Below the pieces are notes generated by a model. The model saw nothing but the letters and a program-made list of their open reading frames with translations. It did not search any database and was not told the origin of the DNA. A DNA stretch of 64,000 bases from Escherichia coli (lineage in GTDB: Bacteria; Pseudomonadota; Gammaproteobacteria; Enterobacterales; Enterobacteriaceae): assembly GCF_044647545.1 (NCBI RefSeq), contig NZ_CP172818.1. One strand, written 5' to 3'. A program made the translations under genes and the position numbers. This document shows positions 22,831 to 23,426 of the stretch, in pieces; position 1 is the stretch's first letter, and the number at the start of each line of letters is the position of its first letter.

Positions 22831-23097
22831 TCACACAATAACTCTGAGATCGCAGATTGTTTTACTTTTACAGCTTCCGTCCCCCCATTGTTGGGCAAAT
22901 ATAGATTGGGCCAGAGCACGAAAGTTAATACCACGTTTGCACAGCTCCTCCAACAGCACGACAAGATGCCACATACTGCGCCCCAGTCGGTTCAGTTTAC
23001 AGACTAGCAGTGCGTCCCCTACCGATAATGTCCTGAGCCGTTTGTTCTGTCCGGGCCTGCTGCCACGGTTATGCGCTGCAGTGGTAACTCTAAGCAC
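22831..23097 (-). pseudogene. pinH: Serine recombinase / DNA invertase fragment (Pin/Hin-like)
   Basis: Translation RPGQNKRLRTLSVGDALLVCKLNRLGRSMWHLVVLLEELCKRGINFRALAQSI aligns to the central part of Hin/Gin/Pin invertases; N- and C-termini absent or out of frame. Confidence 0.75.
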
Positions 23098-23426
23098 GCA
23101 GTTATTCAGTCAGGCGTGGTGCACCGTAACGCTGGTATTGCTGGGTAAGATCAAAAAACTTTCAAGCAGCTAAGGAAAGTTGAACCAGACATTAGATGAA
23201 ATATTTCAACCAATTACAGCACCAGTTCAGACACCGCCAACTCATCAAATAAATCAAGGGGTTACGTGAAAGCGCAGCCCCTTTTACTTTGGTAGTGGCA
23301 GCAAAAGGGTTGTAGTGTAAAGGATAATTCCGTTTAATCAGCCAACAATATATATTATTTCAATCTACGTTATTATCTCTTTTAAAAATAGCCATTTATT
23401 TATCATTGAAAACTGCTTTTAGAACT

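Follow-up and report, generated by a model that had tools for sequence, protein, structure and literature searches.

The small gene fragment on the minus strand between ypjA and the AT-rich ypjCB region of E. coli is pinH, and it is very probably inert: a fossil DNA invertase gene of the Pin/Gin/Cin/Hin kind, from a phage tail-fibre system, that can neither catalyse nor direct inversion. This relic is already known: it is a named pseudogene of K-12, and in thousands of genomes the PGAP annotation marks it as an incomplete recombinase. No functional literature on the K-12-type pinH was found. The 'PinH' of an O157 proteome paper is a different protein, the full-length invertase of CP-933H, and the coincidence is a name collision. 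The features of the locus within the window (the whole 64-kb stretch that was analysed) are the following:

17924-22492, minus strand: ypjA/ehaD, adhesin-like autotransporter (ORF list, PGAP)
22650-22872, minus strand: ypjA upstream region, 82-89% identical to the ymgJ/ycgI autotransporter-remnant locus (paralogy)
22831-23097, minus strand: mechanical 88-aa ORF with a GTG start, which begins in IS3 debris, crosses the invertase fragment and ends at the first stop (ORF list)
22873-22880, no strand: 3' junction, a few bases between the last invertase bases and the ypjA-upstream block (homology ends at ~22881, paralogy at 22872)
22881-23067, minus strand: pinH, internal piece (codons ~36-100 of ~185) of a DNA invertase gene of the Pin type (protein homology, DNA alignment, PGAP, K-12 b2648)
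23068-23135, minus strand: internal fragment of IS3 orfB, HTH_21 region, ~nt 543-619 of the 1,258-bp IS3 (alignment to IS3)
23136-23153, minus strand: left terminal repeat of IS3, exact 18 nt, TGATCTTACCCAGCAATA (one match in the window, none in 100 shuffles)
23427-24865, minus strand: ypjCB (ypjB and ypjC; DUF5508/DUF5507), frameshifted, AT-rich, GC 33-36% (ORF list, PGAP)

The protein-level matches all fall on the same short segment. The Pfam domain PF00239 (Resolvase, N-terminal domain) is matched over profile positions 47-102 of 145, with an E-value of 5.9e-9 and 36.6 bits for a cutoff of 23.3. In tblastn, residues 35-94 of P1 Cin match the window at 23079-22900 with 63% identity (E 7e-18), and residues 39-94 of the Fels-2 invertase match the fragment with 68% identity (E 8e-19). 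The minus-strand translation of 23079-22900 is AAHNRGSRPGQNKRLRTLSVGDALLVCKLNRLGRSMWHLVVLLEELCKRGINFRALAQSI. PHROG 125, 'DNA invertase', is matched with an E-value of 1.2e-14 and 55.5 bits, against 17.6 bits for integrase. In the genome of FDAARGOS_497, which is 100% identical over the locus, PGAP labels the equivalent of 22900-23067 as a 'recombinase family protein', incomplete, with both the N- and the C-terminus missing. The fragment is also alone: the closest intact Pin, used as query against the whole 64-kb window, gives a single match, the pinH fragment itself, and a permissive tblastn (E up to 100) yields no second invertase piece in any frame between 17000 and 29000. The preliminary description of this DNA had claimed a Pin/Hin-like catalytic-domain fragment located between ypjA and AT-rich ORFs, and both the fragment, whose homology is far beyond chance, and its place are confirmed; the name pinH was not part of that description. 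The span that it assigned, 22831-23140, holds the true fragment but is too wide: 22831-22880 is a 50-nt non-homologous tail up to the first stop codon, and 23068-23140, the 5' third, is IS3 debris.

The limits of the fragment are set by alignment to intact prophage pin genes. The DNA homology extends from ~23067 (codon ~36) to 22881 (codon ~100), with CAATGGGG at 22881-22890 as the last recognisable pin bases. The reading frame is shared with the intact invertases from ~23079/23067 down to 22900, where the in-frame match ends in ...QSI. A 4-nt deficit near 22899 then shifts the frame ahead of CAATGGGG.

The 5' flank of the fragment is made of IS3 sequence. A piece of orfB (~77 nt) is joined straight to the invertase fragment at a common GTGGC. 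Its identity to IS3 is 79% in the window allele and 88.6% in the K-12 allele, and in the latter it is recognised by HTH_21 (29.9 bits, cutoff 28.1) and by positions 145-172 of 369 of the NCBIfam model transpos_IS3. Megablast gives, in addition, a 67-bp match of the pinH 5' flank to an IS3-family pseudogene. Strain A38 has an intact IS3, whose left end matches TGATCTTACCCAGCAATA at 23136-23153 letter for letter. The stub is composed of IS3 nt 1-18 and ~nt 543-619, with an internal deletion of about nt 19-540; neither the right end of IS3 nor a longer left end occurs in the window. Of the 1,258 bp of IS3, ~95 bp survive at the pinH 5' flank, without right end or intact transposase gene, and what is left is a remnant, not a mobile element. 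Judged from its sequence, this flank derives from IS3 but is no insertion sequence, as it lacks the pair of terminal repeats and orfA/orfB. On the 3' side, the ypjA upstream block stands in the place of the second half of the invertase gene, and only the ~8 bases of 22873-22880 separate it from the fragment. The ymgJ/ycgI locus, to which this block is paralogous, is the upstream region of another autotransporter remnant and lies beside minE.

The orthologue in K-12 MG1655 is the 240-bp pseudogene pinH (b2648), placed between ypjA and ypjB. It occupies the same place and strand, has the same IS3 junction at its 5' side and the same ypjA-upstream junction at its 3' side, and is 94.8% identical over 421 nt, the window allele reading ...PGQNKRLRTLSVG... 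where K-12 reads ...SGLKKLVRTSSAG.... The whole 6-kb island of the window is ~93% identical to that of K-12. The IS3 piece of the window allele is more decayed than its K-12 counterpart, with two extra stops. In the K-12 annotation all 240 bp are called pinH and the IS3 debris is unmarked. In K-12, pinH lies beyond the right end of CP4-57 and beyond ypjA, and in FDAARGOS_497 it is present without any prophage between ssrA and ypjA; pinH is independent of prophage CP4-57.

The truncations have removed both ends of the recombinase and left about 60 of ~185 codons, from the middle of the catalytic domain. Residues 1-35, which hold the nucleophilic serine in the YVRVST motif, are missing, since the homology begins at residue 35 of Cin and residue 39 of the Fels-2 invertase, and IS3 sequence sits where the invertase N-terminus would be. 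The E-helix and the C-terminal HTH domain are also missing: the in-frame match stops at Cin residue 94 and the DNA homology at ~codon 100, and no match to an invertase C-terminus exists anywhere in the window. Within the part that is left, the KLDRLGRS motif reads KLNRLGRS (Asp to Asn) in all of the seven alleles that were compared (window, K-12, O157:H7 PA20, VTB96959v, MRSN346638, strain 100248 and Res13). The Asp and Arg residues of the K-L-D-R-L-G-R-S active-site cluster have established roles in the Tn3/gamma-delta resolvase.

The DNA elements of an inversion system are equally absent. The P1 record annotates the enhancer at nt 19-90 of cin, and the homology of pinH starts only at ~nt 106; as judged by position alone, the stretch of the Fis-dependent recombinational enhancer is gone. 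The crossover sites were sought with the pattern TTNTCNNAAACCNNGGTTTNNGANAA, of the 26-bp gix/cix type, with up to three mismatches. In P1, MB06231 and GB089 this pattern returns exactly two sites each, which flank the invertible segment and which in P1 are the annotated cixL and cixR; in the MB06231 and GB089 prophages, 55-80 bp separate the pin start codon from the proximal site upstream of it. At the same tolerance of three mismatches or fewer, it has no match in the 64-kb window and none in the 18-kb K-12 locus. Half-sites occur in the window at chance level (15 found, 16.8 expected), and the best inverted repeats between 17.5 and 28.6 kb, of 20-32 nt with 70-81% complementarity, are unremarkable. 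The preliminary description, which proposed a search for gix/hix-like repeats, had itself recognised no flanking crossover sites, and the search bears it out. Partner genes are missing as well: tblastn with 15 proteins from three intact systems (E of 0.1 or less) detects no homologue of tail-fibre, tail-fibre-assembly, baseplate or sheath proteins in the 64 kb. In comparison with Cin (P1), Gin (Mu) and Hin (Salmonella), which are Fis/enhancer-dependent DNA invertases and to whose subfamily pinH belongs by sequence, pinH has no nucleophilic serine, no enhancer-bearing 5' end, neither E-helix nor HTH domain, and neither cix/gix sites nor an invertible segment.

The orientation of the locus was compared across 5,426 complete E. 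coli genomes. Of these, 3,001 contain the 751-bp locus (22650-23400) in a single colinear block, and 2,792 are colinear with a 6-kb query (21000-27000) at a coverage of at least 80%; these figures come from coverage counts together with sampled rows, not from a genome-by-genome reading, and inversions under ~1.2 kb within the 6-kb query would escape the count, while the 751-bp query spans the relic itself. Departures from the 6-kb colinearity in the sampled rows consist of IS1 insertions, partial deletions of ypjA and absence of the island. In strain A38 an IS3-associated deletion took ypjA and the 3' part of pinH. The genes ypjA, pinH and ypjCB are on the same strand in eight fetched loci from different lineages, and no orientation polymorphism is seen in the sampled assemblies, a type of record that cannot reveal heterogeneity within a population. 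For the preliminary description, the lack of both crossover sites and orientation polymorphism was the outcome that would speak against an inversion system; both are lacking, and so there is no working inversion system here, only its fossil.

A blastn search of the 'distant' kind over the 5,426 complete E. coli genomes revealed intact prophage relatives of pinH with 84-88% identity. The closest intact relatives by DNA identity are the prophage invertases of MB06231, SC477 and GB089. The pinE-type gene of MB06231 (WP_000904960.1) is 84-88% identical at the DNA level to the seven pinH alleles over ~145 nt; over ~140-150 nt, the pin genes of the P2-like prophages of SC477 and GB089 are 81-84% and 74-79% identical to the pinH alleles, respectively. 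These intact invertases are complete proteins of 184-197 aa, whereas pinH comprises only ~60 codons. Each of the three intact pin genes is directly adjoined by an opposed pair of tail-fibre and tail-fibre-assembly genes. MB06231 and GB089 each have two 26-bp crossover sites, 1.8-1.9 kb apart, whereas pinH has none. The MB06231 protein shows 67% amino-acid identity to the window fragment, below the DNA identity (84%), as would be expected once selection has ceased to purge non-synonymous changes.

In another reading, pinH would act as a live homology patch: prophage pin genes would cross over with it in a stretch of 23-35 identical nucleotides and generate pin::pinH hybrids that keep the catalytic N-terminus. 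Such events would bring a prophage tail-fibre switch beside ypjA and alter the arrangement of the chromosome, with large inversions or deletions as the reciprocal outcome. Eleven distinct hybrid ORFs of 116 aa (P0008 and P0175-P0184) suggest this possibility, each with an intact pin N-terminus, MLIGYVRVSTNDQ..., followed by the 3' part of pinH. Three of the contigs were inspected at base level and carry the 5' parts of three different prophage pin genes, all joined to pinH within GGACTGAAAAAACTGCTCAGGACATTATCGGCAGG, a stretch in which prophage pins and some pinH alleles agree exactly over 23-35 nt. One 22-kb contig contains a full Mu-like tail module up to the pin::pinH hybrid, and contigs from the ypjA side extend over 115-420 bp of the sequence upstream of pin. 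Real recombinants, too, would be expected to give contigs that end near the crossover site or near the ymgJ-like repeat. On the other hand, the 116-aa hybrids come without exception from metagenome/Logan assemblies and none from NCBI isolates; the two hybrid contigs that state coverage in their names are thin (2.8x and 4.2x); every hybrid contig stops within ~0.5 kb of the junction on at least one side; and none of the 5,426 complete E. coli genomes covers at least 80% of the hybrid contig used as query. Joins inside an identical stretch of 23-35 nt resemble the chimeras of small-k de Bruijn assembly. The hybrid contigs are probably assembly chimeras, and a role of pinH as a recombination patch is unlikely. 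P0008 had also been considered as a less decayed pinH allele that retains its N-terminus; this candidate was rejected, as P0008 and its ten siblings are found only in metagenomes, with thin coverage where it is stated. If the hybrids were real, the relic would still be active in homologous recombination and the eleven metagenome contigs would be its footprint.

The fossil reading, which no result contradicts, is further supported by the way in which the alleles have diverged. Both junctions are common to all seven alleles; the truncations therefore took place once, before these lineages separated. The divergence among the alleles reaches ~8%. MRSN346638 has a 1-nt deletion, strain 100248 a TGC to TGA change, and VTB96959v an Arg to Leu replacement in the DRLGR motif (NLLGRS). 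In the protein databases, gene callers give many differently delimited or truncated ORFs at this locus. The segregating sites at codon positions 1, 2 and 3 number 9, 8 and 10 in pinH, against 18, 6 and 38 in three intact invertases over the same codons, a test of pinH that comprises only 27 segregating sites in 53 codons of seven alleles. Over these codons the three intact invertases have pN values of 0.07-0.16 and pS values of 0.82-0.85. The even spread in pinH indicates, in this small sample of sequences, neutral drift and decay.

The same data bear on a possible co-option of pinH, through either a small protein read from the 88-aa ORF or a contribution to the promoter or 5' regulatory region of ypjA. 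The ORF is uninterrupted in the window allele, and about 55% of complete E. coli genomes keep the relic, which is found ~390 bp upstream of the annotated start of ypjA. However, in other alleles the ORF is broken by a stop or a frameshift, or starts and ends differently, and the substitutions are even across codon positions. A consensus scan of 22400-23500 finds no promoter-like site on the ypjA (minus) strand, with fewer sites in total than in shuffles; promoter and terminator motifs in 22300-23600 do not exceed shuffles, and no Rfam family matches this interval. The genome-reduced strain DGF-298 has lost pinH along with its whole region (PMC10652928), and pinH is dispensable on the evidence of that deletion. 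The retention of pinH is explained by linkage to ypjA and ypjCB. Taken with these findings, co-option is very improbable.

The distribution of pinH outside E. coli was searched with a pinH-specific 29-mer over 100,044 species representatives, an exact-match scan in which diverged copies are missed; two matches were returned. Both were rejected as E. coli contamination, one in a Planococcaceae MAG (100% identical to K-12) and the other in a Terrisporobacter assembly (98.9%). A word-indexed protein search with pinH yields nothing except pinH fragments. Full-length relatives in an exhaustive search of representatives are at most 66% identical, and closer ones are possible, as the representatives were clustered at 50% identity.

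The placement of the fossil within the serine recombinases relies on the comparison of scores over the same residues. In a search against all solved structures, Mu Gin reaches 53.6 bits (E 1.9e-13), the gamma-delta resolvase 22.6 and the Tn3 resolvase 19.2. The large serine recombinase TP901-1 gives 13.4 bits with the fragment. The phage matches to pinH are all annotated as DNA invertases (Fels-2, SEN8, Cin of P1/P7/D6 and others), with 63-68% identity, and the plasmid matches are likewise hin- and pinE-type genes. NCBIfam gives only sub-threshold matches to assorted serine recombinases and is uninformative for a 60-aa piece. By these sequence comparisons the fragment is clearly of the invertase type and not of the resolvase type. 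The possibility that it is the relic of a Tn3/gamma-delta-type resolvase, devoted to cointegrate resolution, can appeal to the PF00239 domain common to resolvases and the fragment, and to weak matches of the gamma-delta and Tn3 resolvases (E 1e-3 to 1e-2), but is effectively refuted at the sequence level by their 19-23 bits against the 53.6 of Gin, by the identity to phage invertases and the PHROG 'DNA invertase' match (E 1e-14), and by the 84-88% DNA identity of E. coli prophage pin genes. The preliminary description had regarded the feature as the relic of an inversion system, which is correct as to ancestry, the nearest intact relatives being prophage tail-fibre invertases.

A history of the fossil may be proposed from its two junctions. 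A prophage, or a prophage end, with a tail-fibre invertase would once have resided in the AT-rich ypjA-ileY island. An adjacent deletion by an IS3 of the same orientation, at the GTGGC microhomology, may have cost the element its right part and the prophage everything as far as pin codon ~36; the enhancer, the invertible segment and the crossover site proximal to pin would have gone with it. The same IS3 would also have undergone an internal deletion. The 3' half of pin would have disappeared at the point that is now the start of the ypjA upstream block, which is either a duplicate of the ymgJ/ycgI locus or the source of it. Each break dates from a single event that precedes the divergence of the E. 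coli lineages with this locus, and since then the relic has drifted neutrally. The limits of homology, the IS3 and paralogous flanks, the missing sites and partner genes, the common junctions and the neutral pattern of substitutions are observed directly; the prophage origin, as well as the order and mechanism of the deletions, is what we infer from the remains.

For those who assemble metagenomes, the locus is a caution, as pinH may appear joined to live prophage pin genes. The anatomy added here is that of a relic with an IS3 stub at one end and a duplicated autotransporter-upstream block at the other; beyond this, the relic matters little. For the biology of E. coli, pinH is a modest, datable trace of what was probably a prophage, lost from the ssrA-ileY island long ago.

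The invertase pseudogene fragment pinH (window 22881-23067, minus strand) lies in a stretch of DNA with the following neighbours:

1-18000: CP4-57-like cryptic prophage, which carries abpA/abpB, rnlA, yfjW and others.
23068-23153: IS3 stub placed directly 5' of pinH, with the left terminal repeat and a piece of orfB.
57653-58244, minus strand: four tRNA-Arg(ACG) genes in tandem, followed by tRNA-Ser(GCT).

The IS3 stub is internally deleted and consists of the left terminal repeat, exact over 18 nt, and approximately 77 nt of orfB; the right end of the element is absent from it. 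The K-12 and PGAP annotation tables examined leave the stub unmarked, and it is common to all seven pinH alleles compared (the window, K-12, O157:H7 PA20, VTB96959v, MRSN346638, strain 100248 and Res13). The 3' break of pinH coincides with the end of a paralogous block upstream of ypjA (window 22650-22872) which, together with the 5' end of ypjA (from ~22522), is 82-89% identical to the ymgJ/ycgI locus, an autotransporter remnant that adjoins minE.

Strain A38 (locus L007, 4740-6000) contains an intact IS3 whose right end is placed within pinH, at the equivalent of window ~23010. IS3 has thus acted on the relic a second time, and recently. In the same strain, an integrase-bearing element at ssrA occupies the place of ypjA and the remainder of pinH. 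In the window, ARAGORN calls no tmRNA and ssrA is therefore outside it.

Eleven ORFs of 116 aa each (proteins P0008 and P0175-P0184) join the 5' part of an intact prophage tail-fibre invertase gene, pin, to pinH. All of them derive only from metagenome or Logan assemblies, and the metagenome contigs L008, L017, L018, L021 and L022 bear on them. The 5' portions come from at least three different prophage pin genes, and the join with pinH falls within an identical stretch of 23-35 nt. These hybrid ORFs are probably assembly chimeras; that they are products of real recombination is unlikely. Two further public records match the K-12 pinH-ypjB locus, namely a 539-bp contig of the Terrisporobacter mayombei DSM 6539 assembly (L019; 98.9% identity) and a 2.8-kb contig of the Planococcaceae MAG UBA3370 (L020; 100%). 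Both are E. coli DNA that contaminates these genome records.

To the right of pinH, a frameshift splits ypjCB into 23427-24284 and 24365-24865. The tRNA at 25622-25697 is called tRNA-Met (CAT) by ARAGORN and its orthologue is annotated as tRNA-Ile (ileY); the CAU anticodon of ileY reads Ile following lysidine modification. An alpha-amylase-family ORF similar to ygaQ (26254-28506) is intact and encodes 750 aa, and its K-12 counterpart is a pseudogene.

The CP4-57-like region to the left of the island is 98.6-99.7% identical to the best-matching genomes (four top matches). The ypjA-pinH-ypjCB-ileY-ygaQ island (window 21000-27000) shares just ~93% identity with the K-12 and O157 haplotypes, and only 132 of the 5,426 complete E. 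coli genomes searched are at least 99% identical across it. Deeply diverged haplotypes of the island appear to exist.
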